Position numbers and translations under genes: made by a program | Notes under the pieces: model-generated | Database searches by the model: none | The model's input: only the letters and a program-made list of their open reading frames with translations | Told to the model about the DNA's origin: nothing | DNA from: Candidatus Jorgensenbacteria bacterium CG03_land_8_20_14_0_80_38_39 | Lineage (GTDB): Bacteria; Patescibacteriota; Minisyncoccia; UBA6257; GWB1-50-10 | Direction: 5' to 3' | Length of the DNA: 46,013 nt | Assembly (NCBI GenBank): GCA_002781185.1 | Contig: PEUU01000025.1 | Span: forward strand, 1-46,013 | Part shown: positions 25,399 to 42,600 of the stretch, in pieces | Numbering within the stretch: position 1 is the first letter of the stretch | How the letters are laid out: each line of letters starts with the position of its first letter

Positions 25399-25407
25399 AA
25401 AATAAAT

Positions 25408-25578: not shown

Positions 25579-25639
25579 AACTTATCTTTTTAATTAATGG
25601 GGCAAAGCTTTAAAAACGACCTTTTATTATTATGGACAT

Positions 25640-26141: not shown

Positions 26142-26151
26142 TAAATTTTAT

Positions 26152-26682: not shown

Positions 26683-26683
26683 A

Positions 26684-28042
26684 TTATGATTCTTTTTGAG
26701 TTATTTCCCGGCTGGGGATTAAACTATAATCTAGGGGTAAAGTGAAATAAACAGTTGTTCCGCGGCCCAAAATTGATTCAATGCCGATTTGGCCGCCATG
26801 TTGGTCAATAATATTTTTGGTTATATAAAGACCCAAGCCGCTGCCGTTGGGATTTACAGAAATGATGTTGGAGCCGCGGAAAAATTTTTGGAAAATATTT
26901 TTTAGTTCCTCGGGAGCAATGCCAAAGCCGGTATCTTCAACATTAACTTTAACAAAAGGCTGGTCCCTGATTTTTTCAATAGTAATAGTTAAACGGCCGT
27001 TTTCAGTATTATATTTAATGGCATTATCAATAATATTTGCCAAAGCCATGCCTAATTTTTGTTGGTCTATTTTTACTTTTATCGGCAGAGTCGGTTTTTC
27101 AAAGTAAACATTAAGACCGCGTTCTTTAGCTAAAGGCAGGGCTTCTCCTAAAATTATTTGGATAAAATTAATTAAATCAACTTCTTCAAATTGATAACCG
27201 AAGCGTCCTTCTTCCATTTGGGCGACATTCAACAAATCGTTAACAATTTTTAAAGCTCGAGTAGAAGCCTGAAAACCTTTCTGGACACTTTCTTTTAAGT
27301 CCGGTTTGTCCGACACATCTTTGATTAAATTTTCAAAAGTCCAATTAATGGCTGTAAGCGGCGTCCGCAATTGATGGGCAGCGACACTAACAAATTCGCT
27401 TTTTGAACGCAGGGCTGCCTTTTCTCGGGTTTGGTCATGAATGACTTTGATGAAATTTAAAGCCCGACCGTTTTTATCCAAAATGCGGCTTAAGGTGGTT
27501 TTTAATTCTAAAAGAGGATTTTCAAAATTTAAAATAACAACTTGCGGCCAGGAGTCGGTTTCGGAAATTTGTCTCAAGGAAGGCGCTAAAGAAGGGAAAA
27601 TAGTTTGAGCTAAAATGCGGAAACGGTTGTTTTTAGCTAAACTCGGCTCAATTTTTTTGCCAAGCATTTCTTCGGCTGTCAATTGAAAGATTTTTTCCGC
27701 CGCCGGATTAAATGTTTTTAAGTAAAAATCCGGGTCATAAATAACTATTCCATCTTGAAAATTCTGAATAATTGTCTGTAAAACTTGACCACTTAATTCT
27801 TTTTCCGGTTTTGATTGAACGCCCTTAAAACTATTGAAAATAGTCATCAAGGTTAAGACCATTAAAATCGGCAAGCTGATGCCAATTATTATTGGCGGTA
27901 AGTAAAAAATATCAATGATTAAAAGGACGGCAATTAAAACTATAAAAAGAATCAAAAAAACGATTGACGGCTCGCGGCCGAAAGGGTTATTTTTCCGTTT
28001 TAAAAGAGACATTGATTTAAATTTTATTCCATTTCTCCCCAA
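26684..28042 (-). CDS. Membrane-bound PAS-domain sensor histidine kinase (no adjacent response regulator)
   Basis: Two TM helices and a PAS-like region. H-box SVAAHQLRTPLTAI, N box DNAIKY, G boxes EDTGFGI and GSGLGL. An alternative start at M11 (28012) would remove the overlap with polA. Confidence 0.8.
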   Translation of the reverse strand: MGRNGIKFKSMSLLKRKNNPFGREPSIVFLILFIVLIAVLLIIDIFYLPPIIIGISLPILMVLTLMTIFNSFKGVQSKPEKELSGQVLQTIIQNFQDGIVIYDPDFYLKTFNPAAEKIFQLTAEEMLGKKIEPSLAKNNRFRILAQTIFPSLAPSLRQISETDSWPQVVILNFENPLLELKTTLSRILDKNGRALNFIKVIHDQTREKAALRSKSEFVSVAAHQLRTPLTAINWTFENLIKDVSDKPDLKESVQKGFQASTRALKIVNDLLNVAQMEEGRFGYQFEEVDLINFIQIILGEALPLAKERGLNVYFEKPTLPIKVKIDQQKLGMALANIIDNAIKYNTENGRLTITIEKIRDQPFVKVNVEDTGFGIAPEELKNIFQKFFRGSNIISVNPNGSGLGLYITKNIIDQHGGQIGIESILGRGTTVYFTLPLDYSLIPSREITQKES

Positions 28043-30495
28043 TTTTTTCCTTGTTCAGTTTCAATTTGGAGCGGAATAGATAAAGGGAAAATTTCTTCCA
28101 TTGTTTTTTTAATATGGAGTTTTGCAATTTCCAGCATATCATCTTTAATTTCAAACAGCAATTCATCATGAAGAGATAAAACCATTTTAACCTTATTTTC
28201 CCATTTCTTTTCTTGGACGTCTTTAAAAATTTTAATCATGCTCATTTTTAGGATATCAGCCCCTAAGCTTTGAATGGGCATATTAATAGCCGCCCTTTCC
28301 ATTTCTGATTGAATGCGGGGAAGGGTAGAAATAATGTCCCAAAACCACCGCCGCCGGCCGTTAAGATTTTTGATATAACCAAAAGTTCTAACCTCGGCTT
28401 TGATTTTTTCCTGCCAAATTTTAATTTTAGGAAAATGGCGGAAGTATTCTTCAATAAACTTTTTAGCCTCGGCTTCGTTTAAACCAGCGGCTTGGGCAAA
28501 AGATTTAGCGCCAATGCCGTAAATAATTCCAAAATTAAGGGTTTTACCCAATCGCCTGAGAGAGTCGGTAATTTGTTCCGGCGGCAAATGAAGCACCTCG
28601 GAAGCAGTTACTTGATGGATGTCCTGGTTTTGTTTAAAAACCTCTTTTAATTTATCGTCTTCCGACAATTCGGCTAAAAGCCGCAGTTCCAGTTGGGAAT
28701 AGTCAAAAGAAACTAAGTGCCACCCTTTTTCAGCTTCAAAAGTTTCTCTTAAGAATTTTGCCCAAACTGACTCTTGAGGAATGCTTTGAAGATTGGGTTT
28801 TTCCGAACTGAGACGGCCGGTGGAAGTGCCTGTTTGCAAAAAATGGGTATGCAGCCGGCCATCCTTGCCCAAAAGTTTTAAAATTGGTTCAACGTAGGTA
28901 TTTTTTATTTTTGTTGCCTCTCGATATTTTAAAATTAAATCAACCAAAGGATATCCATTTTTAAGTTGGTTTAAAATTGCTTCAGCCGTAGAAAAAAAGC
29001 CGCTGGCGGTTTTTCTACTTTTGGGGAATTGAATTTTTAATTTTTCATACAAAATTTGGCTTAATTGTTTGGGCGAATTAAGGTTAAAAACCAGGCCTGT
29101 TTCTTGATAAATTTTTTGGACCAAGGATTTTGATTCCAGAAGAAGCTTTTGGCGCAGTTTTTTTAATTTTATTTGATTAATATGAACGCCTCTTTCTTCT
29201 AAAGAAAGAAGAATCTTAATTAAAGGCATTTCCACTTCCCTAAAAACATAATTTAAACCGTAACTTTCTAATTTTTGGTTTAAGAAAAAATAAAGTTCTT
29301 TTAAAATTGACCCCCTTTCGCTTTCTTGGAAATTTTTTTGCAAAAAGCGTTGGTAGAGGATATCCAGGGAATAATTTTCTTGTCCCGAGTCAATAAGCCA
29401 AGCGGCTATTTTTAAATCAAACAAAGGTTCCCTAACCTCCACCTTGGCTTTTTTTAGTTCTTCCAAAAGTTTATGCCAGTCAAAAGCAATTTTTAGCCAG
29501 TTGCCGGCAAGTTTCTTTTTTAAATTTAAAGCCGTTTCCAAGTCAGAAATAATTAAAATTTGGTTTGTTTCAATTATGTCCATTGGCGCCGGCTTTGGGG
29601 ATTTTGTTTGAAAAAGAGTTTGGTTAGGCAGGGGCTGATTGATTATTCTTTTAATTAAACTTTGAAATCCCAAGAGGCCGAAATATTTGACAACCTTTTC
29701 TAGGGGCAAGCCCGGATAATCCAAAGTTTTAAGATTAATTTTAAGAGGCACTTTATCGGAGAGGACGGCTAGTTTTTTAGAAAAAAGGGCTTTTTCTTTT
29801 TGAGGAAGAATTTTTTTAGCCAAAGAATCCGCGGGGTTAATTTTTAAAAAAACATTTTCTAAGTTTTTGTATTGAGAAAGAAGCCGGCTGGCGGTTTTGG
29901 GCCCAATGCCGGAAATTCCCGGAAGGTTATCCGAAGGGTCGCCAACCAAGCCTTTGTAGTCATTAAGTTGATGAGGTTTTAAACTAAAGCGTTCAACAAC
30001 CGCCTTTTCGTTATAAGTAAATGTTTCGCTTACCCCTTTTTTAAGGAATTGAACAACCACTTTGTCTTTTTCCACTAACTGAAGAGCATCAAGATCGCCG
30101 GTTAAAATGACTATTTTGAGGTCAGGAGTTTTTTTGAATTTTTTGGCTAAAGTGGCAATAACGTCATCGGCTTCAAAGCCGGCTTTTTCAAAAGTCCTGA
30201 TGCCGAATTTTTCAAAAAGTTCGTGAGCTTTAATAATTTGGCTGATTAATTCCTTAGCCGCGGGGAGCCGGTGGGCTTTGTAACCTTCAAACATTTCTTT
30301 GCGGAAGGTTGTTTCCGGTCGGTCAAAAGCCGCGGCCAGGTAATCGGGTTTTTGTTCTTTGATGATTTTTATTAAAATGCTTGCCAGTCCGTAAAGAGCA
30401 TTAACCATTTCCCCTTGCGGCGAGGTTAAAGCCGGCAGGGCGTGGAAAGCGCGGTGAATTAAGCCGTTGGCGTCAATAAGAAGAAGAGTTTTCAT
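28024..30495 (-). CDS. polA: DNA polymerase I
   Basis: 823 aa. A 5' nuclease domain (LLIDANGLIHRAFHA, GDLDALQL, GIGPKTA). Family A polymerase motifs (DYSQLELRLLA, RRLGKTLNFGIIYG, SLHDELLFE). The central exo-like region lacks an obvious DxE ExoI motif. Confidence 0.95.
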   Translation of the reverse strand: MKTLLLIDANGLIHRAFHALPALTSPQGEMVNALYGLASILIKIIKEQKPDYLAAAFDRPETTFRKEMFEGYKAHRLPAAKELISQIIKAHELFEKFGIRTFEKAGFEADDVIATLAKKFKKTPDLKIVILTGDLDALQLVEKDKVVVQFLKKGVSETFTYNEKAVVERFSLKPHQLNDYKGLVGDPSDNLPGISGIGPKTASRLLSQYKNLENVFLKINPADSLAKKILPQKEKALFSKKLAVLSDKVPLKINLKTLDYPGLPLEKVVKYFGLLGFQSLIKRIINQPLPNQTLFQTKSPKPAPMDIIETNQILIISDLETALNLKKKLAGNWLKIAFDWHKLLEELKKAKVEVREPLFDLKIAAWLIDSGQENYSLDILYQRFLQKNFQESERGSILKELYFFLNQKLESYGLNYVFREVEMPLIKILLSLEERGVHINQIKLKKLRQKLLLESKSLVQKIYQETGLVFNLNSPKQLSQILYEKLKIQFPKSRKTASGFFSTAEAILNQLKNGYPLVDLILKYREATKIKNTYVEPILKLLGKDGRLHTHFLQTGTSTGRLSSEKPNLQSIPQESVWAKFLRETFEAEKGWHLVSFDYSQLELRLLAELSEDDKLKEVFKQNQDIHQVTASEVLHLPPEQITDSLRRLGKTLNFGIIYGIGAKSFAQAAGLNEAEAKKFIEEYFRHFPKIKIWQEKIKAEVRTFGYIKNLNGRRRWFWDIISTLPRIQSEMERAAINMPIQSLGADILKMSMIKIFKDVQEKKWENKVKMVLSLHDELLFEIKDDMLEIAKLHIKKTMEEIFPLSIPLQIETEQGKNWGEME

Positions 30496-30500
30496 AAAAA

Positions 30501-30962
30501 TTATTTATTTTTTGTTTTGATAAGAATAAGACGTTGATTGATTTCTTTTCCGTGCTGAAAAGTGAGCCAAATGGCATTTTTGGGCAGTAAATTTTTGATT
30601 TTTTCCGCCCATTCAATAAGAACAATGTTTTGGGGATTTTTAATAATTTTATCAAATTCCAAAATTTTTAAGTCTTTTCGGGAACTTGAACGATAAAAGT
30701 CAAAATGATAAAGATAGCATTTTTGAGAAGCAGAAAAAAATTTTCTCATGATGAGAAACGTCGGACTGGTAATTCTTTTTTTAATGCCGAAGCTTTTGAT
30801 AAAACCGCGGATAAAAGTTGTTTTGCCGGACCCCAATTCGCCCATCAAACCCAAGACCAAAGCTCCTTGAGAGCGAGGTTTTTTTTCTAAAATAGTTTGG
30901 ACAAAAAGGCGGGCAATTTTTTGAGTGGATTGCCAAGAAGAACTTTTTAATTTAAAACTCAT
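30501..30962 (-). CDS. tsaE: tRNA t6A37 biosynthesis ATPase TsaE
   Basis: 153 aa. P-loop GELGSGKTTFIRGF followed by SPTF and HFDFYR motifs typical of TsaE/YjeE. Confidence 0.8.
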   Translation of the reverse strand: MSFKLKSSSWQSTQKIARLFVQTILEKKPRSQGALVLGLMGELGSGKTTFIRGFIKSFGIKKRITSPTFLIMRKFFSASQKCYLYHFDFYRSSSRKDLKILEFDKIIKNPQNIVLIEWAEKIKNLLPKNAIWLTFQHGKEINQRLILIKTKNK

Positions 30963-30966
30963 TGAT

Positions 30967-31986
30967 TTAAATTAAAGCCGAGCAACGGTTAATTTTTAAA
31001 TGTTCGTAAGCCAGAGGAGTGGCTAAACGGCCGGCCGGCGTTCTTTTAAGCATTCCTAAACTCATTAAAAACGGTTCGTAAACTTCTTCAATAGTTTCAA
31101 TTTCTTCGTTTAAGGCCGCTCCTAAAGTTTTTAAACCCACTGGCCCGCCGTTGAACTTTTTTATCAAAACTTCCAAAAAATAGCGGTCGGTTTTTTCCAA
31201 ACCTTTTTCGTCAATTTCCAATAAGGTCAAAGTTTCTTGAACGGCTTTTTCATCAATAATTGACCGGCTATTTACCTGGATGTAATCGCGGCAGCGTTTT
31301 AATAAACGGTTGGCCACGCGGGGCGTAAAACGCGAGGATTGGGCCAATTTTTTGGCCGCCTTTTCAGTAATTTCCGCTTTTAAAATTTTAGCCGATCGCC
31401 TAATTATTTTTTCCAAATCCGAAGGATTGTAATAGTCAAGCTTAAAAGTGCCGCCAAAGCGGGAACGTAAAGGAGAAGAAAGTAAATTGATTTTGGTTGT
31501 CGCCGCAATTAAAGTGAAAGAGGCTAAATCTAGAGAAATGGTTCGCGCCGACGGTCCTTTGCCGATAATCAAATGCAGTTTTTGGGTTTCCATGGCCGGA
31601 TAAAGGGATTCCTCAATGGTTTTGTTAATTCGGTGAGCTTCATCAATAAAAAGGATTTCAAAGGGTTCCAAATTGCTTAAAATGGCGGCTAAATCGCCAG
31701 TTTTTTCCAAAGCCGGACCAGCTGTCGTTTTAATGTTGGCTTTCATTTCTTTGGCAATCAAGTAAGCTAGAGTGGTTTTACCCAAACCAGCTTGGCCGTA
31801 AAGCAACAGATGGTCGCAGGTTTCGTTTCTTTGTTTAGCGGCATCAATAATTAAACGCAAATTGCGTTTGACGTTTTCTTGGCCGACATAATCGTCCCAG
31901 CATTTCGGCCTGAGCATTGATTCTAAATTTTGGTCCTCAAGTTTTTTTTCCATTTTTGAAATTTGAAAGGCGTTGACAAACGTCAT
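30967..31986 (-). CDS. ruvB: Holliday junction DNA helicase RuvB
   Basis: LRPKCWDDYVGQ, Walker A GQAGLGKTTLA, Walker B LFIDEAHR and a winged-helix C-terminus. The start may be M12 (31953). Confidence 0.95.
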   Translation of the reverse strand: MTFVNAFQISKMEKKLEDQNLESMLRPKCWDDYVGQENVKRNLRLIIDAAKQRNETCDHLLLYGQAGLGKTTLAYLIAKEMKANIKTTAGPALEKTGDLAAILSNLEPFEILFIDEAHRINKTIEESLYPAMETQKLHLIIGKGPSARTISLDLASFTLIAATTKINLLSSPLRSRFGGTFKLDYYNPSDLEKIIRRSAKILKAEITEKAAKKLAQSSRFTPRVANRLLKRCRDYIQVNSRSIIDEKAVQETLTLLEIDEKGLEKTDRYFLEVLIKKFNGGPVGLKTLGAALNEEIETIEEVYEPFLMSLGMLKRTPAGRLATPLAYEHLKINRCSALI

Positions 31987-32039
31987 TAAATATGCTAAAC
32001 TACTTACAGTTAATTATAAATAAAGAATGGCTTTAATTA

Positions 32040-32170
32040 AAGACCTGGGGGTAAAGGATTTATTCTTAGTCTTAGGATGATTTGGCTTTGGCTGAATCTC
32101 TCCTCGGAATAATCCTGTTTTTCTGAGCTTTCGGAAATTTTTCAAGCCTCCATGGCTTGCCCCCAGATCT
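32040..32170. ncRNA. Candidate structured RNA or leader in the pilB-ruvB spacer
   Basis: A 188-nt spacer is unusually long for this genome. Nested complementarity: agacctggggg (32040..) pairs with cccccagatct (..32170), aggatttattc with gaataatcct, and there is a local hairpin aagcc-tccat-ggctt. No family recognised. Confidence 0.2.
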
Positions 32171-32174
32171 TTGA

Positions 32175-33842
32175 TTATGACCATTCAAGGGGACCGGTTA
32201 ATCTTTCTACCTCAGCCAAAGAAGTTATGCCCTGCAGCGCTTTTAGCAAGCTGTCTTCCTGCATTGTTACCATTTCTTGTTTTTTGGCGGCGGCTTTTAA
32301 ATCAATTTCTGTTGGGTTTTGGTAAATTAACTCTTCCATTTTTTGGTTAATGACAAAAAGTTCAAAAATGGAAGTTCGGCCTTTATAACCAAAGCCGCCG
32401 CATTGGTCGCAGCCCCGAGGTTCATAAATTTTAAAATTTTCTAGAGGTTTTTTATCAACGCGGCTGGGCAAATTTTTAATAAAGTTTTTAATTTTTTCGT
32501 TTAGAGATTGGTCAATCCTTTTTTCAACTTTGCAGACCGGGCAAAGGAGCCGAATTAATCTTTGGGCAATAACCAAACTTAAGGCCGGACCCAAAATTTG
32601 ACTTTTAACGCCTAAATCTATTAAACGCGGAATCGCGCCGACAGCATCGTTGGTATGAAGAGTGGAAAAAACCGTGTGGCCGGTTAAAGAAGCGTTCATG
32701 GCAATTTCCGCTGTTTCTTTGTCTCTGATTTCGCCCACCAAAACCACATCCGGGTCTTGGCGCAAAATTGACCTGAGACCGCTGGCAAAAGTATAGCCGG
32801 CGCCCGGGTCAACTTGGGTTTGAGAAATTCCAGACAAATGATATTCTACCGGGTCTTCAATGGTGATAATTTTGATTTCCGGTTTGAAAATAAACTTTAA
32901 AAAAGCGTAAAGAGTGGTTGTTTTGCCCGAACCGGTCGGCCCGGTATTTAAAATTAAACCATTGGGTTTTTTAATTTCTTTTTTGACAATTTCCAAATCG
33001 TCGGTCCGCCAGCCCAATTCTTCCAAATTAACTTTTAAAGATTCTGGGTCCAGAATTCTTAAAACCACTGTTTCGCCCCATTCCGAGGGAATAACCGAAG
33101 CTCTGATTTCAATTTCCCGACTAGTTGTTTTGATGGTAAAACGTCCGTCTTGAGGTTGGTCGTGAATGTTAAGTTTTAAATTGGAAAGAAGCTTAAGGCG
33201 AGAAATAAGGGACTGGTAAGTTTTTAGAGGAAGTTTTTCATAAGCCGAATGAAGCAAGCCGTCAATTCTTAACCGCAGGAGGCCTTTTTCTTCAGTTGGC
33301 TCTAGATGAATATCCGAGGCTTTCAAAGATAAAGAGCCGGCTAAAATAATTTCTAAAATTTGGGAAGTTAATTTGCTTTTGGATTCGTCAATCGTTTGGT
33401 TTAGAGCCGTTAAAGTTTTAATATTTTCCTGAAAGGTTTTGAGTCTTTGAGGTTCAATATCAACTTGACCGCTAATTTCTTTCCCCTCTTCAACCGCGTA
33501 TTGGTAATAATTCCAAACCGCTTTGAGACCGGAAAGGGAAGTAATAAAAATATGGAGATTATATTTTTGTTTTAAGCGAATAATTAGTTTTTGGGTTTCA
33601 GTATTTTGAGGATCAAAAGCCGCCAAAACTAAATCGTTTTTGATTGCTTGAAGCCCGGCGGCTAAACTTTTTTTAGCTTCTTCTTCGGGAATAAGGGTTA
33701 GGGCTTTAATTTCAATCGGCGTTTTGCCGCCGACCGGGTTTAAATAAGGCAAATGGAGTTTAGCTGCTCGGCGTTGGGCGTCTTGCTCTTCAGCTTTGCG
33801 CCGCTGTTTTGTTAGTTCTTCTCCTAAGTTAAAATCAGCCAT
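32175..33842 (-). CDS. GspE/PilB-family secretion ATPase (type II secretion/type IV pilus assembly)
   Basis: 555 aa. Walker A GPTGSGKTTTL, Asp box, Walker B VVLVGEIRD, His box, and a tetracysteine motif CPVC...CDQC typical of PilB/GspE. Confidence 0.85.
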   Translation of the reverse strand: MADFNLGEELTKQRRKAEEQDAQRRAAKLHLPYLNPVGGKTPIEIKALTLIPEEEAKKSLAAGLQAIKNDLVLAAFDPQNTETQKLIIRLKQKYNLHIFITSLSGLKAVWNYYQYAVEEGKEISGQVDIEPQRLKTFQENIKTLTALNQTIDESKSKLTSQILEIILAGSLSLKASDIHLEPTEEKGLLRLRIDGLLHSAYEKLPLKTYQSLISRLKLLSNLKLNIHDQPQDGRFTIKTTSREIEIRASVIPSEWGETVVLRILDPESLKVNLEELGWRTDDLEIVKKEIKKPNGLILNTGPTGSGKTTTLYAFLKFIFKPEIKIITIEDPVEYHLSGISQTQVDPGAGYTFASGLRSILRQDPDVVLVGEIRDKETAEIAMNASLTGHTVFSTLHTNDAVGAIPRLIDLGVKSQILGPALSLVIAQRLIRLLCPVCKVEKRIDQSLNEKIKNFIKNLPSRVDKKPLENFKIYEPRGCDQCGGFGYKGRTSIFELFVINQKMEELIYQNPTEIDLKAAAKKQEMVTMQEDSLLKALQGITSLAEVERLTGPLEWS

Positions 33843-34020
33843 TTATTTTAAAATAGCGGTTTTTTCTCTGATTGACAAGACCTTAGAGGTTGAATTCAAG
33901 AAGCTAACGCAACAAGATTTAATGCGCGGTTGTATCTAATAACAACACGATCGTAGTCTTATTAGATATTAAAATTACAAAGATAAACTTGCCTAGATAT
34001 TTTAAAGTTTTTTATTCTCC

Positions 34021-34049
34021 TTGACTTCTGTTTGTTGATTTGGTATAAT
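34021..34049 (+). promoter_or_regulatory. Consensus sigma-70 promoter with an extended -10
   Basis: TTGACT (34021..34026), a 17-nt spacer, then TATAAT (34044..34049) preceded by TGg. Followed by the SD taggaggg (34088..34095), 7 nt before ATG 34103. Confidence 0.65.
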
Positions 34050-34102
34050 GTGGTTAGTTAACGAACCTTGAAAATTTGGTATAAGAATAGGAGGGATTTG
34101 CC

Positions 34103-35053
34103 ATGAAAGCGCTTTTTGGTTGTTTGCTTGTCTTGGTTTTGTTCAGCAGTGGTTGTTACACTGTAACAATCCCAAGTGAAGGTGAAACTTATGAATCTTA
34201 TGATTCAACAGTTTTACAAGTTTCACAATCTGCAATCCAGTTAGGGTTTTGGTGTTGCCCAAGTTACTGGAGTTACCAGTACCCTTACTATGGCTATGCT
34301 CGGGGGTATTGGTGGAACGGCTGGCCAGGGGGTTCATATCCTCTGTATAGAGGATATGGATACGCTAATGGCTGGCTCTGGCATAATGGTTGGCCAGTGG
34401 CTTGGAGTGGCTACGGTTACGGCTACGGTTACGGCTACGGATATCCTTATGCCTATGGATCTGTCCTGAGCGGAGCGAATGGATGGGGCGATTGGGATAA
34501 CCAGAACTGGTTTGACCAAAGTCGCTGGCGAACAAGAAATTTCGGCGCCACTCGCGGTAGCGGCTTAAGAGGAACTGATCGTGCTAGCGCAGGAAGCGGC
34601 AGTTCTTTTACTGGAGAGCGAGCTTCTCGCCCGGGTTCAACTCGGAGCGGTTTTTCTAGCCCAAGTTGGGGTAGGACTAGAGAGCGAGCACGAGCAGTTG
34701 AAGTGGCTAAGTCATCGCGACCTTCAAGGACAGAAACTACTAGAACTTCGCCTCATAGAGGTCGTAACGGCACGGTGCGTCAGCAGCCCGGTGCTCAGTC
34801 ACAGAAACCAGAAATCAGGTCACCTCAGAAGCCGCGGGATGAACGTAATCGCCAGCGGGATTACCGGAATTATTCTCCGAGTCATTCCTCCGGTGACAGT
34901 CGTTCAACTAGCGGCCATCCAGCTTATTCTCCGCCGAGCTATCCCCGTTCTTCAAGCGGGCGCCCAAGTTATTCACCGACACCGAGGAGTAATTCGGGTC
35001 GGAGCGCTCTCTCAACACCAAGAGGAAGTTTGGGCTTTACTCGCCGGCGATAA
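34103..35053 (+). CDS. Low-complexity putative lipoprotein: W/Y/G-rich N-half, R/S/P-rich C-half
   Basis: Signal peptide with a lipobox-like sequence, MKALFGCLLVLVLFSSGC. The (GY)n run GYGYGYGYGYGYPYAYG is encoded by ggctacggttac repeats (34408..34443). The C-half contains SR/RS/YSP motifs. Visibly GC-richer than its flanks, with a strong promoter, SD and terminator. Confidence 0.6.
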   Translation: MKALFGCLLVLVLFSSGCYTVTIPSEGETYESYDSTVLQVSQSAIQLGFWCCPSYWSYQYPYYGYARGYWWNGWPGGSYPLYRGYGYANGWLWHNGWPVAWSGYGYGYGYGYGYPYAYGSVLSGANGWGDWDNQNWFDQSRWRTRNFGATRGSGLRGTDRASAGSGSSFTGERASRPGSTRSGFSSPSWGRTRERARAVEVAKSSRPSRTETTRTSPHRGRNGTVRQQPGAQSQKPEIRSPQKPRDERNRQRDYRNYSPSHSSGDSRSTSGHPAYSPPSYPRSSSGRPSYSPTPRSNSGRSALSTPRGSLGFTRRR

Positions 35054-35060
35054 TGTTTTT

Positions 35061-35110
35061 ACTCCGTTGTTTGAGTTTCGACTCGGCAACGGAGTTTTTA
35101 TTTTTTCTTT
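35061..35110 (+). terminator. Rho-independent terminator of the lipoprotein gene
   Basis: ACTCCGTTG-ttt-GAGT-TTCG-ACTC-gg-CAACGGAGT (a two-tier stem with a UUCG tetraloop), followed by tttttatttttttctttt. Confidence 0.7.
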
Positions 35111-35145
35111 TGCCCGCTTAGTTTAAAGTGATTTAGATAAAATTT

Positions 35146-35172
35146 TTAGATAGATTAGATAGATTAGATAGA
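35146..35172. repeat. Tandem 9-mer repeat (ttagataga x3)
   Basis: Three perfect head-to-tail copies. A related atttagataa lies at 35131..35140. Confidence 0.8.
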
Positions 35173-35200
35173 CAGCAAAAAAACAAAGAAAAAATCTTAT

Positions 35201-35234
35201 CCTCAATCTTGTATCATATGATACAAGATTGAGG
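35201..35234. repeat. Perfect 34-bp palindrome
   Basis: cctcaatcttgtatcat|atgatacaagattgagg is perfectly self-complementary. It lies downstream of the already terminated lipoprotein gene. Confidence 0.85.
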
Positions 35235-35279
35235 ACAGTCATTTTTATCTTATTTTACTCTATCGTCTATTCTATTTTG

Positions 35280-35367
35280 TTCTTCCACTGTGGTTGAACT
35301 ATTTTATTTTACTCTTTCATTTTTCAATTGGACTATTCTATTTATTCTTCCATTGTGGTTGGACTAT
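35280..35367. repeat. Pair of 23-nt direct repeats upstream of yidC
   Basis: ttcttccactgtggttgaactat (35280..35302) and ttcttccattgtggttggactat (35345..35367) match at 21 of 23 positions. The surrounding ~60-nt units also resemble each other (ttttactct...tattctattt). Confidence 0.75.
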
Positions 35368-35414
35368 GAAGAAAATAACTTGGCTTTTTTCAAAGAAATC
35401 ATTAGAATAAAGCA

Positions 35415-36113
35415 ATGGCTTATTTGTATCAAACTTATATTTATCAGCCGATTTTACAAGCTTTAATTTTTATTTACCATAATTTAGCTTTTCACGATTT
35501 AGGGCTGGCAATTATTATTTTGACGACTTTAATCAGAATAATTCTTTTGCCCTTGTTTTATAAAGGCGCCAAAGACCAAACTTTGCTTCAGCGACTTTCT
35601 CCTCAAATTAAAAAAATTCAGGGTGACCATAAAGACAATAAAGAAAAACAAGCCAAGGCCTTAATGAATTTTTACCGCGAGCATCGGGTTAATCCTTTTT
35701 CCGGAATTTTGCTTTTAATTTTGCAGCTCCCGATTATTATCGCCTTATATCAAGTCTTTTTGAAAGGTTTGTCAGCGGAGATTTTTGGCAATCAAATGTT
35801 TTTGGGTCTGATTAATTTAGGGCAAAAAAATCTTTGGCTGGCTGCTTTTGCCGCTTTAATTCAGTTCTTTTACGGTCGGCTTTCAATGGCTCCTCAGCCG
35901 GCCGGTCAATCAGGACAAGCAGTTAATCAAAAAACCGCTTTTAATCCTCAAGCCTCAGTAACCAAAATGATGACTTGGATGGGTCCATTTTTGACACTTT
36001 TTATTTTGGTTTCTTTGCCGGCTGCCATTGGCTTGTACTGGGGAATTTCCACGGTATTTTCCTTGGCTCAGCAACTGGTCATTAATAAAAAGATTCATCA
36101 GCAATTTAAATAA
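35415..36113 (+). CDS. yidC: Membrane protein insertase YidC (short, Gram-positive-like form)
   Basis: 232 aa. Has the conserved R in TM1 (TTLIRIILLPL), the KMQxLQPxxxxIQ-like QRLSPQIKKIQ, NPFSG, and the C-terminal LPAAIGLYW. Confidence 0.9.
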   Translation: MAYLYQTYIYQPILQALIFIYHNLAFHDLGLAIIILTTLIRIILLPLFYKGAKDQTLLQRLSPQIKKIQGDHKDNKEKQAKALMNFYREHRVNPFSGILLLILQLPIIIALYQVFLKGLSAEIFGNQMFLGLINLGQKNLWLAAFAALIQFFYGRLSMAPQPAGQSGQAVNQKTAFNPQASVTKMMTWMGPFLTLFILVSLPAAIGLYWGISTVFSLAQQLVINKKIHQQFK

Positions 36114-36632: not shown

Positions 36633-37019
36633 ATGGTTGATAGAAAAAATCTAAAGCGAGAATTTAAGCTCAGAATTTATCGCTATGTGATACGACTTTT
36701 AAAATTTTTAGTTAAATTACCAAATGAGCCGGTAACCCGCGAAATTAAAAGTCAACTGACCAGAAGCGGCACATCAATTGGCGCAAATTATTTTGAAGCC
36801 GAAGGAGCCAGTTCTAAAAAAGACTACTAGAATTATTTCGCCATCGCCTTAAAATCAACTAATGAATCAAAATTTTGGTTGGCTGTTTTGAAAGATAGCA
36901 ATTTACTACCAGAAGAATTAAAATCAGAATCTGAACATCTTTTAAAAGAAACGGGTGAAATTGCTAACATTTTTGCCTCAAGTATTTTAACTATGAAAGG
37001 TAAAAGAAAAATTTTTTAA
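36633..37019 (+). pseudogene. Four-helix-bundle protein (23S rRNA IVS-protein family) interrupted by an in-frame TAG
   Basis: The first part, ...LTRSGTSIGANYFEAEGASSKKDY, stops at TAG 36828..36830. The same frame continues NYFAIALKSTNESKFWLAVLKD...GEIANIFASSILTMKGKRKIF to TAA 37017..37019. Both halves together match the family pattern and the ~125-aa length. Confidence 0.7.
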
Positions 37020-37066: not shown

Positions 37067-38188
37067 CTAGTATCCGCCTAAAGGAAATTCGTAAAGATAA
37101 TTGTCGTAGCGATTGATAAAGTAAAGGACGCCGTCCGGCGTAATTCTTGCGTTTGTTGCGTCAATAGCCGGAATGTTTTCTTGGCTGCTCATAAAAATTT
37201 GATTCATATCGCCACTTTCTAAATCATTGACAAATAAAGCGTCCAAAGAATAAGTTTTGCGAGAAAAATAATCATCAGGCAAAGTTGAATCCGGCAGAGT
37301 TAAGGATGAAGGGACAAAACAATAAATCGTGTTTAAATAACTGTCGCATTTTTGAGGAAAAGTCGGCGGCAAAGAAAATTGCTTTTGGTTATTAATGGCG
37401 AAAAACCGGTAAGGCAGACTGTATTTGAATAAATATTGATTGTCCTGGCTATGATAGAGCATTAAACCCAATTCCGGACCATAAAGGGTTTGAAAAGATA
37501 AGGTTTTCAAATCAAGTTTCCAAACTTTGCCGCGGTAAGAAGCCGAGGGCTTTTCCATAATTAAAAGTTGGTCGGGCGCTTGCCATTTTAAATCAATGTC
37601 TTTGAAGCGGAAGTCGCTAATAATAATTTTTATTTTCGGCGGCGAGCTTTGAAGGTCAATATTGGCAAGGCTGATATTTTGTTGATTTTTTACGAGACCA
37701 ATAAGATTATGGTCTGAATCTGCCCAAGTAGCTTCTAATAAATCCGCAGGCAGAGGCCGCCAAGTCCGGTCATTAATATCAAAAATTCCCCATTGGGGTT
37801 GGCGAGGGTCGCCAAAAGCCATTAAAATTTCTTGAGCGCTAGGCGAGGGAATAATGGAATTAATGGCGGAAAAAGTTTGGGAAGAATAAAGAATGTCTTC
37901 TCCGGCTTTGGCATTATAAACTTCTCCTTTGGGGGTTAAATAAAAAATTTCTTCGGTTTCAGGAGAAAGCCAATAATTAAAAATTGGCCGGTCAGAAATT
38001 TTTTGAGGAGCCGGTTTATTTGCCTCTGTTGGCTGAATTGAACCTGGAGTTTGGATTGAAGGAGGCGAAATTATTTTTTTAGGCGTGGAAATTTGTCCCC
38101 AGAGCCAATAAACAGTTACAGCCAGAACCACTATTATCGCCAAAATAATTAAAATTTTATATAAAGGTTTCATAATTAGTTGGTGCAA
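37067..38188 (-). CDS. Signal-anchored extracytoplasmic protein; last gene of the T4SS-like operon
   Basis: 373 aa. One N-terminal TM helix (ILIILAIIVVLAVTVYWLW), then a beta-rich domain with a propeller-like feel. The start overlaps the upstream gene by 13 nt. Confidence 0.5.
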   Translation of the reverse strand: MHQLIMKPLYKILIILAIIVVLAVTVYWLWGQISTPKKIISPPSIQTPGSIQPTEANKPAPQKISDRPIFNYWLSPETEEIFYLTPKGEVYNAKAGEDILYSSQTFSAINSIIPSPSAQEILMAFGDPRQPQWGIFDINDRTWRPLPADLLEATWADSDHNLIGLVKNQQNISLANIDLQSSPPKIKIIISDFRFKDIDLKWQAPDQLLIMEKPSASYRGKVWKLDLKTLSFQTLYGPELGLMLYHSQDNQYLFKYSLPYRFFAINNQKQFSLPPTFPQKCDSYLNTIYCFVPSSLTLPDSTLPDDYFSRKTYSLDALFVNDLESGDMNQIFMSSQENIPAIDATNARITPDGVLYFINRYDNYLYEFPLGGY

Positions 38189-38874
38189 ATTTTTAAATCA
38201 TCATCATAAAGTTTCTCAGTCTTGTCAGTAATCTTTTCTGGCAAGTCAATTTGTTTGAAAAGATAACATAAAATAGTAAAATTGCCTTTGGTTAGAGAAA
38301 AAGGAATAAAATGAGGGCCGGTGTCAGGAGTAGAAACGGAGCCAGTTCCGTAAAACAAGTAATAAAAGTATTTAGTGCCTTTGTGGTCAGTCCAGTTTAT
38401 TTTTTTGCACTTAGCGAGTGTTTCTTGAAAATCTTTATAATCATCGCCGCAGATAGCCCTAGAAGTGGTAGTAGCAATAGGCTGTGTTGAGGTGACCCCG
38501 CTGATTTGCAAAGTCACCAACTGGGGATTAATTGTTGTTAAGATTAAATAAGCGCCAAAAAGAAGAAGCAAGCCCCAAAGAGCTGAATAGATTCTGCCCA
38601 AAGCGTCTCTTTTTTTATCCGGCGAAGCGGCAGACATAACCGCGTATTGGACAGCGCCGAAAACAATCATTACCAAAGCCAGCATTCCGACAATGCCCAA
38701 GCCGAAATTGTAAAGGCCCTGAATATAAGTGAAAAGATAATTAGGGTTTTGCTTGAGAATTTCAGGAGTGACGTCGGGGAATGTAGATGTAGCCGCTTGA
38801 GCTTGGTTTTTTATAGCCAAAAATGTCCCCCAAAGAAAAAAATTAATAATTAAAAATATAACAATTTTTTTCAT
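38176..38874 (-). CDS. VirB2/TrbC-like T4SS pilin candidate with a Cys-containing C-terminal extension
   Basis: Signal peptide ending AQA|AT. Two hydrophobic helices separated by a short polar loop (GIVGMLALVMIVFGAVQYAVMSAASPDKKRDALGRIYSALWGLLLLFGAYLILTTINPQL), which is the VirB2/T4SS-pilin topology. About 100 extra C-terminal residues with 4 Cys. Confidence 0.5.
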   Translation of the reverse strand: MKKIVIFLIINFFLWGTFLAIKNQAQAATSTFPDVTPEILKQNPNYLFTYIQGLYNFGLGIVGMLALVMIVFGAVQYAVMSAASPDKKRDALGRIYSALWGLLLLFGAYLILTTINPQLVTLQISGVTSTQPIATTTSRAICGDDYKDFQETLAKCKKINWTDHKGTKYFYYLFYGTGSVSTPDTGPHFIPFSLTKGNFTILCYLFKQIDLPEKITDKTEKLYDDDLKICTN

Positions 38875-39563
38875 TGACTCAGATAAAAAGTTAAACTTGT
38901 TTCCTGAGGCGGAATTAAAGGACTGGTTTTGTTTTCCACCCCGGCGCCGATTCTAAAGCTATTATCAGTATTAGCCCAATCTTTGCTTACAGTTAAAATC
39001 ACCGGATTTTGGTTGTTTAATTCTTTTTGAAAATGAAGATTAATTTTCCAGAAGAAATTAAAATCCTGAAAATTGTTAGCATTGAAAAAATAAGGAACAG
39101 AACGAAGAACTATTTGTTCCCCTTCTTTAAAAGTTTTGATTGGCGAAGGGTAATCAATAATTACTTGAGGTTCAGCAATATTAACGCTGACGCTGTTGCC
39201 GTAATTGTTTTGTTCCAGTTGAATCTCCGTTCTCACTAAATAAGGGCCGAGCCAGTTTACCGGGACATTAATTAAAATTTCTTTTAAGCCAATTCCCCGA
39301 TTAAAATATTTATTGTTAACATACCAAAGAAAGTCCGCCTTGCTGATGTCAATAATTTTATTATCTTTTATTAATTCGGCGCTTACTAAAATTGGAGTCA
39401 TCGGCGTGGCTAGGGCTTTTAAGGGGTAATCAGCGGGGAAATAATTATTGGCTTGCCAGGTTAAAATGACTTGAGTTGAAGGTTCGGAAGTTTGGGCTTT
39501 GGCTTGAACCAACAATCCCAGAGAAATAATGATTATGATAAAAGTTAAAATTTTCTTTTTCAT
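38871..39563 (-). CDS. Secreted hypothetical protein in the T4SS-like operon
   Basis: 230 aa. Signal peptide MKKKILTFIIIIISLGLLVQAKA. 4-nt overlaps on both sides. Confidence 0.5.
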   Translation of the reverse strand: MKKKILTFIIIIISLGLLVQAKAQTSEPSTQVILTWQANNYFPADYPLKALATPMTPILVSAELIKDNKIIDISKADFLWYVNNKYFNRGIGLKEILINVPVNWLGPYLVRTEIQLEQNNYGNSVSVNIAEPQVIIDYPSPIKTFKEGEQIVLRSVPYFFNANNFQDFNFFWKINLHFQKELNNQNPVILTVSKDWANTDNSFRIGAGVENKTSPLIPPQETSLTFYLSQ

Positions 39564-41335
39564 TTTTGTTGTTCTTCCATGCCTTGTTCTTCTAAACCTT
39601 TGGCGGCTAAAATTTGTTCGGGATTAGTGGTAATAATCTGGTCCTCGGTATAAGAAGGAATGATTTTGATGGCCGCTCTTTTTAAACCGGCAAAAAATAA
39701 ACCTTCGCCAATGCCAGCTTCCAGAAGAAGAGCTTTTTCACCTTCGGTTAAATCAAAAGTTTTAGCCACAATATCAATATTGGCCGGCGCTTGCTTAAGC
39801 AATAATTGAATGGTGGAATTGGTGATAATCGGTCGGCCGTATTCGGAAGTTAAGAAATCGTTGACGTCTTGGGTAATGGTTGTTACCCCCAAATAATATT
39901 TTCGGCAGCGTTTAACCAGACCAAAGAGGAAAGCGGCGCTGTCTTTATATTTCATCATCCACCAAGCTTCATCAATTATCAAAATCCGGCGTTTTAGTTT
40001 TGAGCGAATGAGATTCCAAATGAAGTTTAAAATAACATACATTGCAATCGGTCTGAGTTCGCTTTCCAAATCCCGAATGGAAAAAACTATCAAGCGATTT
40101 TTAATGTCAACATTGGTTGGTTGATTGGTAAAACCGGCATAAGAGCCGTGAGTGAATTTATCCAAGCGTTGGGCTAAGGAACGGCCGCCCTCGGTATTTT
40201 GAAGAACAGTTTGAAAATCTTCAAAAAGCGGCGGTTGAAGTTCGGTTGAGCCGAAATTTTCCGGCGTGATATCGCGGGAAGCATAAACGTCGTTAAGAGC
40301 CCGGTCTAAAAGCGCATCTTCTTCGGGCGTGATTTCTCCAAGCATTAATTCAATTAAGCCGGTTAAGTTTAAAATGTGGGATTTAAAAACATCGGCCGGC
40401 TCTTCATTTTCGGGAATAATGGGAATGTCAAAGGGATTAACGTGTTTTTCCGAAGTGAGGGAAATTTTAAACACTGAACCGCCAACCGCGTCCGCCAAAG
40501 TTTGATATTCATTTTCCGGGTCAATAACAATAACATCGGTTCCAATCATCATTGAACGGATAATTTCTAATTTGGTGGCATAAGATTTACCGCTGCCGGC
40601 CTTGGCGAAAACAACCGAGTTCGCGTTCTCCAAAGAAAAGCGGTCAAAAATAATCAAACTGTTATTATGAAGATTTAAACCGTAAAGAACTCCTTTGTCC
40701 GAACTTAATTCCGGCGAAACAAAGGGAAATAATGATGAAGCTGGCAAAGTATTAAGGGGAGTGTAAATGCCTAATTTGTCTTGACCAAAAGGGAAAACTG
40801 AATTTAAACCTTCAATTTGGCGGAAAAGAGCCGCTTTAAGATAAACCAATTTACTTTCCAACCGAGAAGTTAAGGTGTTTTCTAATTTTGATAATTCTTC
40901 TAAAGTGGTGCCGTAAATAGTGATATAAACTCCGACCTCAAACATTTTTTCTCGGGCTTGCTGAAGCGCGTCTCTAAGATTTTCTATGTCTTCGTGGGCG
41001 GTTTCCAGAAGCGGGTCGCGCACCATTCCTTTTTCTCCTTTTTCTCCCATTTCCGCTTCAATTTCCGCCACTCGTTTTCTTAAGCTTTTAAGGGCTAAAG
41101 CCACATCCAAAGGATGCATAAAAATACTAATATCCATCATTTCGGTCAGCTCAATAATTGAAGAAAACCAGCCGCTTGAAAGGTAGCGGGGATAAGTGAA
41201 GATAAAAAAGGATTTAGCGAAATAATCGCCCAATTTCAAATAGTTGGATTCTATTTTTAAACCGGCCGGCGCTATTACTTGAACCGTGTCAGCCGCCGAA
41301 GGCTTATAAGCTTGAGGCAATTTTATTTTAACCAT
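39560..41335 (-). CDS. VirB4/TraC-like T4SS ATPase (C-terminal part of a split VirB4)
   Basis: 591 aa. Walker A FAKAGSGKSYATK, Walker B RILIIDEAWWMM. The upstream segment LKLGDYFAKSFFIFTYPRYLSSGW is typical of the VirB4 middle region. Confidence 0.8.
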   Translation of the reverse strand: MVKIKLPQAYKPSAADTVQVIAPAGLKIESNYLKLGDYFAKSFFIFTYPRYLSSGWFSSIIELTEMMDISIFMHPLDVALALKSLRKRVAEIEAEMGEKGEKGMVRDPLLETAHEDIENLRDALQQAREKMFEVGVYITIYGTTLEELSKLENTLTSRLESKLVYLKAALFRQIEGLNSVFPFGQDKLGIYTPLNTLPASSLFPFVSPELSSDKGVLYGLNLHNNSLIIFDRFSLENANSVVFAKAGSGKSYATKLEIIRSMMIGTDVIVIDPENEYQTLADAVGGSVFKISLTSEKHVNPFDIPIIPENEEPADVFKSHILNLTGLIELMLGEITPEEDALLDRALNDVYASRDITPENFGSTELQPPLFEDFQTVLQNTEGGRSLAQRLDKFTHGSYAGFTNQPTNVDIKNRLIVFSIRDLESELRPIAMYVILNFIWNLIRSKLKRRILIIDEAWWMMKYKDSAAFLFGLVKRCRKYYLGVTTITQDVNDFLTSEYGRPIITNSTIQLLLKQAPANIDIVAKTFDLTEGEKALLLEAGIGEGLFFAGLKRAAIKIIPSYTEDQIITTNPEQILAAKGLEEQGMEEQQK

Positions 41336-41347
41336 TATTTTTTTTGT

Positions 41348-42031
41348 TTATTCTTTGTTTTTTTCAGACCTTTCAGGCAGGGATATTTTTCTTTCGGTTA
41401 ATTGGGGATTATATAAATTATAAAATAATTCGATTAATTCTTCATCGTTTAAAATAGCGGCTTTTAATCCTATTTGGTTCAAGGCGCTTAAAACCTGGTC
41501 GGTTCTTTCGCTTAATTGCTGAAGAGACTGAGAAGAAGTCAATTCAGTGTTCGGTTGGGAAGTTTTTTTCTTTTTAATAAATTGGAAAAGACCGGAGAGT
41601 CCCCCGCCGCCGAAACCGCCAGCTGCTTGAATATTTATGGGACTGGCATCATAAGTGACAACAACGAAGAATTTTTTGGTAATAATGGCGTTTTGTTCCA
41701 CAAAAGTTCTAATAAAATTAACGTACTCGTCAAGCTGGATTTTTAAAAGTTCGTTAGGTTCTTTTTCTTTAAACTCGGCCATCTTTTGAAGATAGTTTTC
41801 AATGTTAATTTTCCGGGAATGAATGAAAAATTGAATTGGAAAATCAAGCATGTTCAAAAAATTTTGGAAACCGCTGGTTATTAGATTTTGCTCGGTTTCG
41901 GATTTTAAATCAAAGTTGATTCCGCTCGTAATTAAAATTTGGCGCAAACCGCCGCCTTTTAAATAAACAACGCTGTCGCGGATTTCTTTAACTTCTACAA
42001 ATTGTTGAGTTGAAGGTTGAGAGCTATTCAT
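41348..42031 (-). CDS. VirB4 N-terminal-domain-like protein (first part of a split VirB4)
   Basis: 227 aa. FVEVKEIRDSVVYLKGGGLRQILITSGINFDLKSETEQNLITSGFQNFLNMLDFPIQFFIHS resembles the N-terminal region of Gram-positive VirB4 homologues (from memory of the family pattern). The stop lies 12 nt before the ATPase ATG. Confidence 0.5.
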   Translation of the reverse strand: MNSSQPSTQQFVEVKEIRDSVVYLKGGGLRQILITSGINFDLKSETEQNLITSGFQNFLNMLDFPIQFFIHSRKINIENYLQKMAEFKEKEPNELLKIQLDEYVNFIRTFVEQNAIITKKFFVVVTYDASPINIQAAGGFGGGGLSGLFQFIKKKKTSQPNTELTSSQSLQQLSERTDQVLSALNQIGLKAAILNDEELIELFYNLYNPQLTERKISLPERSEKNKE

Positions 42032-42117
42032 TGATTATATTTTGAGAGTGTTGATAAGACTTCGGCTGACATGCTCGGGATGAAACTATTGAATAGTTAT
42101 TCAATAGTTTTACTTTA

Positions 42118-42597: not shown

Positions 42598-42600
42598 TTT

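Follow-up and report, generated by a model that had tools for sequence, protein, structure and literature searches.

The subject of this analysis is a 316-amino acid open reading frame (ORF) on contig PEUU01000025.1 of Candidatus Jorgensenbacteria bacterium CG03_land_8_20_14_0_80_38_39. We analyzed 46,013 nt of this contig, hereafter the window, and coordinates are positions within it unless a locus from elsewhere is named. The ORF lies at 34103..35053 on the plus strand, opens with ATG, and was called as a gene in all assemblies; its translation agrees with the sequence noted earlier. Its product is the precursor of a lipoprotein from an unannotated low-complexity family. The gene is located in the replication-origin region, with dnaA and dnaN at 20.3-22.9 kb and the cumulative GC-skew minimum close by. 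It adjoins the yidC and jag genes, directly downstream, and proteins named as Candidatus Jorgensenbacteria, Paceibacterota, or Patescibacteria share 65-68% identity with the adjacent PilB/GspE-type ATPase. Groundwater metagenome assemblies carry the exact 316-residue protein in 64 blocks; the strains are ~99.9% identical, and the ORF and its flanks are without any difference between them. As detailed below, the gene is genuine and has been maintained by vertical descent in a Patescibacterium near Jorgensenbacteria (Parcubacteria/Paceibacteria lineage), and we place high confidence in the statements of identity made here, namely, that it is a gene, that it encodes a lipoprotein precursor, that it belongs to the family described, and that its composition and expression signals are as given.

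The encoded protein is organized into compositionally distinct segments. The signal peptide and lipobox (MKALFGCLLVLVLFSSG|C, Cys18) span 34103..34156 (+), where a lysine at position 2 is followed by the hydrophobic stretch ALFGCLLVLVLF and then by SSG-C18, giving the lipobox LFSSGC. Under a PS51257-type rule (a positive n-region; an uncharged hydrophobic h-region; [LIVMFWSTAG]2-[LIVMFYSTAGCQ]-[AGS]-C; Cys at about 15-35), the regular expression was true for all five members of the family introduced below, among which Cys18 and Tyr19 are both invariant. Residues 19-50 (34157..34252, +) form a polar, acidic spacer that contains the motif GETYESYDS and is net negative in all members. An aromatic/Gly block follows at approximately residues 51-138 (34253..34516, +), with 17% Tyr, 17% Gly, and 10% Trp and including PSYW, WWNGWPGG, WHNGWPVAW, (GY)n, and NGWGDWDNQNWF; within it, three copies of the 12-nt tandem repeat GGCTACGGTTAC (34409..34444, +) encode a GYGY run. 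The remainder, residues 139-316 (34517..35050, +), is a basic Arg/Ser/Pro/Gly/Thr tail (22% Ser, 19% Arg, 10% Pro) ending in RRR. Counted over its full length, the protein contains 36 Arg and 3 Lys, for a net charge of about +21 to +22, and Ile, Leu, Val, and Met together make up only 8% of its mature part. A preliminary description of this DNA had already reported the ORF, lipobox, and both low-complexity blocks, along with a promoter, a Shine-Dalgarno (SD) sequence, and a two-tier UUCG terminator, and we find all of them in the same places.

Conservation of the gene could be examined on a 155-kb sister contig (L056), where the neighboring ATPase (P0002), the nearest relative of the one in the window, is 76% identical. 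Gene order there is the same as in the window: type IV secretion system (T4SS) genes, IVP, jag, yidC, gene X, ATPase, ruvB, tsaE, and polA. Gene X, in the syntenic slot of the 316-residue protein, is a 117-amino acid ORF (P0121) that starts MKAF..LAGC|Y and continues with a Tyr/Trp/Gly block (GYYYYYDG, YYGWPVGHVGYSY) and a short Arg/Ser/Asn tail. Residues 52-115 of the window protein align to P0121 with a score of 111, compared with a shuffle mean of 40-44 (sd ~8); none of 500 shuffles reached 111, and when shuffling preserved composition in 10-residue blocks, z was 5.2. P0121 is the orthologue. Because the ORF, promoter, a stretch of the 5' untranslated region (UTR), the AGGAGG, and the terminator are all shared with L056, both the gene and its reading frame are conserved.

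The expression signals are exceptional for this genome. A sigma-70-type promoter, TTGACT-17-TATAAT with an extended -10 TG, lies at 34021..34049 (+); no other site in the window is as good, and no other 11/12 match there has an extended -10. Its -35 element, spacer end, and -10 element (TTGACTT...TTTGGTATAATG) are kept in L056. From an assumed start position, the 5'UTR would run from 34056 to 34102 (+). Its RNA is without a stable fold (z = +0.8), and alignment with L056 shows a conserved stretch, CTTGAAAAyTTkGTA. The SD sequence AGGAGG is at 34089-34094, 8 nt ahead of the ATG, and among 60 genes of the strain (33 in the window and 27 more) this is the sole GGAGG at SD spacing before a real start. 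The other 32 window genes show at most 4/6 matches to AGGAGG upstream, the 27 further genes (including rplT, infC, and rpmI) have no perfect SD, and the only other GGAGG of the window with a start codon at SD spacing falls inside polA. The sister locus gives the same picture, with AGGAGG in 1 of 17 genes, the orthologue P0121. The claim in the preliminary description that these are the best expression signals in the window is borne out by the only 11/12 extended -10 site and by an SD that none of the other 59 genes shares.

A perfect, correctly spaced SD persists in both species though the 5'UTR has otherwise gained indels, which suggests that the ribosome uses it. Together with the promoter, the SD also suggests that this gene in particular is geared to high output; with both signals conserved in the sister, it looks built for very high expression. 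As a separate observation, the genome is essentially SD-less, with AGGAGG at SD spacing in 1 of 60 genes and rplT also without one. A search for the 16S rRNA gene of the strain, as the source of the anti-SD, in the 10 kb beyond both window ends met only transfer-messenger RNA and tRNA genes. The anti-SD motif has been detected in only 48% of Parcubacteria (PMC9297842).

Downstream of the ORF, an intrinsic terminator occupies 35062..35107 (+; -19.5 kcal/mol, z = -5.6). Its hairpin (35062-35094) has a UUCG loop on a bulged, two-part stem and is followed by a T-run (UUUUUAUUUUUU); none of 200 shuffles folds as well. The terminator is kept in L056 (CTCCGyTGTTTGAGTTT...CArCGGAG) with one compensatory change from U-A to C-G. 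We considered the hairpin as a dispersed repeat element and rejected this, as it is unique in the window and occurs in three copies only in the intergenic region of the sister. Those three copies of the terminator type (CTCCGyTG...CArCGGAG plus T-run) lie within 700 bp, at L056 7122-7150, 7632-7654, and 7758-7784. The same intergenic region of L056 encodes an extra hydrophobic ORF of 32 amino acids that is absent from the window.

Relatives beyond the sister were difficult to find. Single-sequence searches, both word-indexed and by exhaustive phmmer against 1.84 billion representative proteins, gave no match, the protein itself not being among the sequences searched. A HMMER bias artifact was rejected as the cause of the null phmmer result, as a copy with 60% of its residues randomized still scores E = 1e-52. 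In keeping with the preliminary description, which likened the architecture to adhesive or condensate-forming low-complexity proteins more than to a bacterial family, no curated family was matched: members had no Pfam match at E up to 5, and the window protein had no NCBIfam match at E up to 1. A three-member profile found no relative among Protein Data Bank sequences, Rfam gave only a sub-threshold chance match on the locus, and no described analogue was found in literature searches, in which PMC13194787 deals with lipoproteins of the host, not Patescibacterial ones. A profile of the window protein and P0121 did recover two proteins, P0122 (358 aa, E = 5.6e-4) and P0123 (357 aa, E = 0.056). 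A metagenome scan with three-sequence, poor patterns of the GYGY type added one new member, a 283-aa ORF on L065. These three members come from diderms, and all are encoded on soil or sediment contigs of 60-66% GC.

The five proteins share an ordered plan of lipobox-Cys-Tyr, acidic spacer, aromatic block, and basic tail. Tyr-Thr follows the cysteine in the window protein (SSGC|YTV), in the L065 ORF (FSGC|YTQ), and in P0122 and P0123 (QGC|YTQ), and the spacer motif GETYESYDS corresponds to GDVDEGYDS in L065. A PS.[WY] element then precedes a block of 60-90 residues with 6-11 aromatics per 20 residues and GYGYGYPYYGYG-type runs. After the block comes the family motif W-RTRNFGATRGSG (residues 142-154; 34526..34564, +), which takes the form WQNREFGSTRGSG in P0122 and P0123, the two closest of the long relatives. 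Across the window protein and these two the motif can be written W-(R/Q)(T/N)R(N/E)FG(A/S)TRGSG, or W..R.FG.TRGSG, with invariant columns W142, R145, F147, G148, T150, R151, G152, S153, and G154. The long tails contain far more Arg than Lys (29-36 R vs 0-7 K), carry QR.YR[DN] in register in the window protein (QRDYRN, 34853-34870), P0122, and P0123, and end in RR, or in R-P in P0122. Whole-sequence shuffles give z = 12-14 for the window protein, and shuffles preserving local composition give z = 4.6 for P0123 (0/300) and z = 2.9 for P0122 (1/300). We read the similarity to the diderm proteins as probable genuine, fast-evolving homology in which partial convergence may play a part. The family so defined is small, and neither Pfam, NCBIfam, nor the literature that we searched describes it. 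Within it, the common block order extends to GC|YT, PS.[WY], a GYGY-type block, and a terminal RR (or R-P), and the diderm members differ from the window protein in their longer acidic spacer, poly-Gly ends, and lack of an SD.

These shared motifs also settle the reading frame. Low-complexity ORFs are often spurious, and a 181-amino acid ORF overlaps the gene at 34581..35126; the 316-residue frame might then be a non-coding by-product of a GC-rich segment, or the shorter frame, an alternative raised in the preliminary description, might be the real one. However, the in-register motifs common with the homologues all fall in the 316-residue frame, where the signal peptide, the lipobox, and several motifs are conserved across five proteins. 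The SD of this frame is at the correct spacing, and codon-position composition is strongly 3-periodic, with position 3 at the genomic AT bias and positions 1 and 2 GC-rich. The alternative ORF has a GTG start and no SD and runs through the terminator hairpin. A non-coding segment or a wrong frame has next to no probability, and the ORF at 34581..35126 is a shadow ORF.

Given that the preliminary description stressed how GC-rich the ORF is relative to its surroundings, we examined its base composition by codon position. The contrast stands for total GC, which is 0.517 compared with 0.29-0.42 in the 31 other long ORFs of the window; the GC maximum of the 46 kb (0.552) falls in the 500-nt interval 34501-35000. 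At synonymous sites it disappears, GC3 being within the range of the neighbors. GC1, GC2, and GC3 are 0.50, 0.65, and 0.41, with neighbors at 0.27-0.42 for GC2 and 0.22-0.41 for GC3, and the excess is located at codon position 2. When the protein was re-encoded with the codon usage of its neighbors, the expected GC3 was 0.460±0.027 (observed, 0.408; z = -1.9) and the expected total GC was 0.534±0.010 (observed, 0.519), such that any departure at synonymous sites is slight and toward AT. Because observed GC and GC3 are at or below this expectation, the GC-richness is entirely an effect of amino acid content (Gly, Arg, Ser, Pro, Trp, Ala, and Thr). The homologues behave alike: GC2 is 0.63-0.67 in the three GC-rich ones and 0.65 here, whereas GC3 tracks the host, from 0.41 here to 0.66 in the 60% GC contig and 0.81-0.83 in contigs of 65-66% GC. 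This provides a methodological lesson, in that a striking GC "island" can be an amino-acid effect alone, with GC2 constant and GC3 host-like.

These results bear directly on where the gene came from. An islet of foreign DNA, recently inserted and bordered by the TAGATA repeats that cluster on both sides of the gene, would account for a total GC of 0.52 vs ~0.38, for this being the only SD-led gene, and for the lack of any other homologue in 0.89 Mb of Patescibacterial loci. Yet GC3 and total GC are at or below what the codon usage of the host predicts, and in the sister the orthologue sits at the corresponding position, with matching promoter and terminator. The gene is not bordered by an integrase gene, a tRNA gene, or a target-site duplication. 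As for the SD, the diderm homologues lack one and so were not its source. We consider such an islet highly improbable, and the gene is not a recent foreign insertion. The preliminary description had inferred horizontal acquisition from GC and had itself named amino-acid-driven composition as the outcome that would count against it; the codon-usage and GC3 comparison returned that outcome, and with GC3 at 0.408, within the range of the neighbors, and a sister orthologue in the same slot, the proposal is not sustained.

An older event is a different matter. In the diderm genomes, the family gene is located between two conserved neighbors (L062 2913-6487; L064 1300-4950; L065 30-2005). Upstream is a secreted protein of ~270-300 amino acids whose three copies are 42-80% identical and YjbH-like at the same profile positions, with YjbH matches of 15-22 bits that are below the Pfam threshold of 24. 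Downstream is a FadL/Toluene_X-type outer-membrane barrel, above the Pfam cutoff. The cluster may constitute an uncharacterized outer-membrane system. YjbH-like and FadL-like partners are absent from the window, from the sister, and from 0.89 Mb of Patescibacterial DNA, and a five-member hidden Markov model detected no further copy of the family among the 3,161 ORFs of those 0.89 Mb. A scan of GTDB with the ATPase yielded 49 Patescibacterial loci, and in none of them is the ATPase gene adjoined by the family gene, yidC, or jag.

In several other Patescibacterial lineages, the position divergent from the ATPase gene is taken by different ORFs with lipoboxes: L007 5382-5810, L058 3544-3978, L010 5089-5847, and L054 5385-5825, all on the minus strand. 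The three of these four that were measured are each GC-richer than their own locus (0.54-0.58 vs 0.43-0.47). They were tested as diverged orthologues and rejected, with all pairwise z at or below 2.1. The position looks like a fast-turnover lipoprotein slot. Because it holds mutually unrelated lipoprotein genes in other lineages, the adjacency of our gene and the ATPase gene is probably non-functional.

An ancient transfer between phyla, from GC-rich diderms into the species ancestral to both the window species and its sister, with full amelioration afterward, would explain the patchy distribution of the family over two sister Patescibacteria and GC-rich diderm contigs. It would likewise fit the 0/49 count beside the ATPase gene in other Patescibacteria, the lack of a further match in 1.84 billion representative proteins, the gene context that is conserved in the diderm copies and missing from the Patescibacterial ones, and a slot that turns over, as seen from its unrelated lipoprotein genes. 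Five sequences are nonetheless insufficient to establish transfer or its direction, low-complexity families are hard to detect such that absence elsewhere is weak evidence, and the similarity could partly be compositional convergence. We regard this origin as possible and hold it tentatively; it is compatible with the role that we propose for the protein below.

Beyond the gene itself, the flanking DNA has its own peculiarities. Upstream, an imperfect inverted repeat at 33933..33968 has 18-nt arms (83% complementary) with TAGATA in the arm ends, the center ACGATCGT, and a weak RNA fold (z = -1.6); the equivalent position of L056 is a perfect palindrome with other arms and the same ACGATCGT center. 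A motif count adds a third upstream TAGATA copy at 33994..33999 (+). Downstream, a repeat search placed a TAGATA copy and a 3 x TTAGATAGA tandem repeat at 35134..35172 (+), for which L056 has a single ATTTTTAGATAAA. A perfect 34-bp palindrome at 35201..35234 (-24.8 kcal/mol, z = -7.7), preceded by an A-tract and followed by a T-tract, is unique in the window and resembles a bidirectional terminator-like element or insulator. Two 27-nt direct repeats, 65 nt apart and each with CCAyTGTGG, occupy 35276..35367 (+) upstream of the yidC promoter; they occur only here in the window and are absent from L056. The intergenic region after the terminator is ~190 bp longer than that of L056, and the extra sequence contains the TTAGATAGA repeat, the palindrome, and the 27-nt repeats. 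The yidC gene is seemingly leaderless, with a TTGGCT-17-TAGAAT site (35380-35417) that ends 6 nt before its ATG (35415) and no SD; a leaderless-type arrangement is kept in the sister (TTGGCT-17-TAAAAT, then ATG; L056 ~7003-7040).

The TAGATA motifs and the perfect palindrome had been listed in the preliminary description, and both are present as listed. Window-wide, TAGATA is at chance level (12 observed vs 11.7 expected), and 7 of its 9 intergenic copies fall within the 621 nt flanking the gene (binomial P ~6e-7, or 6e-5 with the 9-bp tandem repeat counted once). The clustering beside the gene is real and partly conserved. Possible roles include a regulator site, an insulator between a strong promoter and yidC, and slippage-prone AT-rich DNA. 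We rejected the repeats as a replication origin, since DnaA-box-like sites cluster between dnaA and dnaN (21.67-21.81 kb) instead. That the motifs might be sites of a regulator, as the preliminary description had entertained, and more precisely operators through which a dedicated regulator controls this gene, yidC, or both, would draw on the local clustering (P = 6e-7 to 6e-5), on the two copies that form the ends of an inverted repeat, and on the one copy on each side of the gene in the sister. Three copies, however, are a single 9-bp slippage-type tandem repeat that is missing in the sister, and the arm sequences of the upstream palindrome are not conserved. The stretch from -35 to -10 is free of copies, a regulator gene is not found next to the gene, and the count for the whole window equals chance. 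An operator function is accordingly doubtful.

We next consider what the protein may do. AlphaFold2, run on a three-sequence alignment, returned a mean predicted local distance difference test (pLDDT) of 41 and a predicted template modeling score of 0.18, with a tail pLDDT below 50. Beyond the signal-peptide helix, the only elements were a beta-hairpin over residues 85-106 (the NGWLWHNGWPVAWSGYGYG core, also conserved in the sister) and a helix at residues 245-255 that covers QRDYRN. As weak evidence from a shallow alignment, the model is consistent with a largely disordered mature protein. The explanation that we favor overall, with a probability of about 0.5, is an abundant, lipid-anchored, disordered envelope protein with a self-associating aromatic block and a tail that binds anionic polymers. 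On this explanation, the protein would be made in large amounts, processed by Lgt and LspA, and acylated on Cys18, which would tether it to the cytoplasmic membrane on its outer side. The Tyr/Trp/Gly block could act as a multivalent aromatic "sticker," supporting self-association or a small beta structure, and the polycationic Arg tail may bind anionic polymers, for example extracellular DNA, exopolysaccharide, polymers of the wall or teichoic type, or a host cell surface. Anchor, block, and tail together would yield a membrane-anchored, disordered envelope or adhesive layer. As a whole, this mechanism is put forward tentatively, from the sequence. The two roles offered in the preliminary description, a surface "glue" for epibiotic life and a regulated cell-surface matrix protein, are reasonable guesses.

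The predicted hairpin invites another interpretation, in which the protein is a functional amyloid or fiber, the (GY)n / NGWP block forms cross-beta fibrils as in a curli- or Fap-like matrix, and the anchor and tail only position the block. The block is rich in Tyr and Gly and includes a GYGYGYGYGYGY run, the hairpin is the sole secondary structure predicted within it, and the hairpin segment is the best conserved with the sister. Nevertheless, curli- or Fap-type imperfect repeats and a Pfam match are lacking (neither CsgA- nor FapC-type repeats at Pfam E up to 5), partners for secretion or nucleation are missing, with no such genes nearby, and model confidence is low (pLDDT ~64 at best). We therefore view fibril formation as unlikely.

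Comparison with known systems helps to delimit the proposal of a lipid-anchored, disordered envelope protein. As in bacterial lipoproteins that are substrates of Lgt and LspA (PS51257), in all members a lipobox whose invariant Cys is at position 18-24 comes after an N-terminal Lys and a hydrophobic core, and the mature part opens with a flexible region. Unlike in the usual lipoprotein, nearly the whole mature protein is low-complexity, with no folded domain, and position -3 is Ser. Tyr-Arg sticker grammar ("sticker-spacer") drives self-association in proteins of the FUS and hnRNPA1 type. Like these prion-like or RGG proteins, the window protein joins a Tyr/Gly-rich aromatic segment with GYG repeats to an Arg-rich segment; unlike them, it has a secretion signal and a predicted lipid anchor in place of an association with nucleic acids in the cytoplasm, no RGG triplet, and no RNA recognition motif or zinc finger, and there is no homology. 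The likeness would be an analogy of mechanism only. YjbE and GfcA are small, secreted, low-complexity proteins encoded in the yjbEFGH and gfcABCD exopolysaccharide operons of E. coli. The diderm homologues alone resemble them in being encoded beside a YjbH-like gene; sequence similarity is lacking, and the Patescibacterial loci do not contain the partner genes. Lastly, PSY, YSP, and SYP strings in the tail (PAYSPPSYP, PSYSPTPRS) recall mussel foot proteins and the C-terminal domain of RNA polymerase II. The tail, though, is without decapeptide or heptad periodicity, is Lys-poor, and has no associated tyrosinase, and a search for tandem repeats of a consensus unit met isolated YSP and PSY strings only. 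This resemblance is compositional only.

Several observations weigh against the envelope-protein explanation. P0121 is without ~200 residues, including most of the tail, such that the long tail is dispensable in at least one lineage, which weakens any mechanism in which the tail is essential. It also shows that tail length is evolutionarily plastic, through loss or non-acquisition in the sister, and this fits the short DNA duplications found inside the tail along with the 12-nt GYGY repeat. The diderm homology has modest statistics (E = 5.6e-4 and 0.056) and motif matches in sequences of biased composition, and the diderm homologues adjoin outer-membrane genes that are absent here, so that function may differ between the two settings. 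In the lipobox, the -3 residue is Ser and not the canonical Leu, Val, or Ile, and the stricter form [LVI][ASTVI][GAS]C does not match; lgt and lspA were not found in the window or in 20 kb of extensions. The proposed polyanion-binding or adhesive role, finally, would follow from amino acid composition.

Other features of the region merit a brief record. The dnaA-dnaN spacer is likely oriC, with three DnaA-box-like 9-mers (one mismatch each) at 21666-21806. A RuvA-X-Fpg block abuts the ATPase gene in relatives (L007, L058, and L060) and is separated from it here (17077-33842) by dnaA-dnaN and by an inverted block of PBP1, ruvC, yebC, a histidine kinase gene, polA, tsaE, ruvB, and the ATPase gene, transcribed against the direction of replication. 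This suggests that an origin-proximal inversion produced the arrangement in the window. On the other side, a conserved T4SS-like cluster (TrbL_3, PrgI-like, TraC-like, a VirB4/TraG-type ATPase, and a T4SS pilin) adjoins yidC-jag in both species, at 37067-45740 in the window and at L070 10001-18674, with a resolvase gene beyond it in some strains (L071). The 23S_rRNA_IVP gene after jag, encoding a four-helix bundle, is a site of strain-level truncation or frameshift polymorphism: its product has 65 amino acids in the window (36633-36830), 72 in other strains (8531-8749 in L004 and L006), and 160 in L005 (8531-9013). Beyond the left end of the window, the same strain encodes a ThsB_TIR and 8xMP pair and a TaqI-type restriction-modification system with a LexA-fused methyltransferase (L066 15055-18653), which looks like a small defense islet.

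Patescibacteria are ultrasmall and mostly episymbiotic, and to our knowledge almost nothing has been established about their surface chemistry beyond type IV pili. The protein described here can be put forward as a specific candidate for a principal component of the envelope, or of adhesion, in these organisms. Its SD bears on the question of whether SD-poor Parcubacteria keep SD/anti-SD pairing for selected genes, and a family shared with GC-rich diderms offers an experimental handle in tractable hosts. An improbable but more far-reaching extension is a cross-phylum family of lipid-anchored, fully disordered envelope proteins with the "acidic spacer / aromatic sticker / poly-arginine tail" plan, whose Patescibacterial member was captured from diderms, came under the strongest promoter and the sole SD of the 60 genes examined, and forms a condensate-like adhesive coat. 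If true, such a coat would capture extracellular DNA or glue the ultrasmall cell to its host, and would represent an extracellular, bacterial use of the Tyr-Arg phase-separation grammar.

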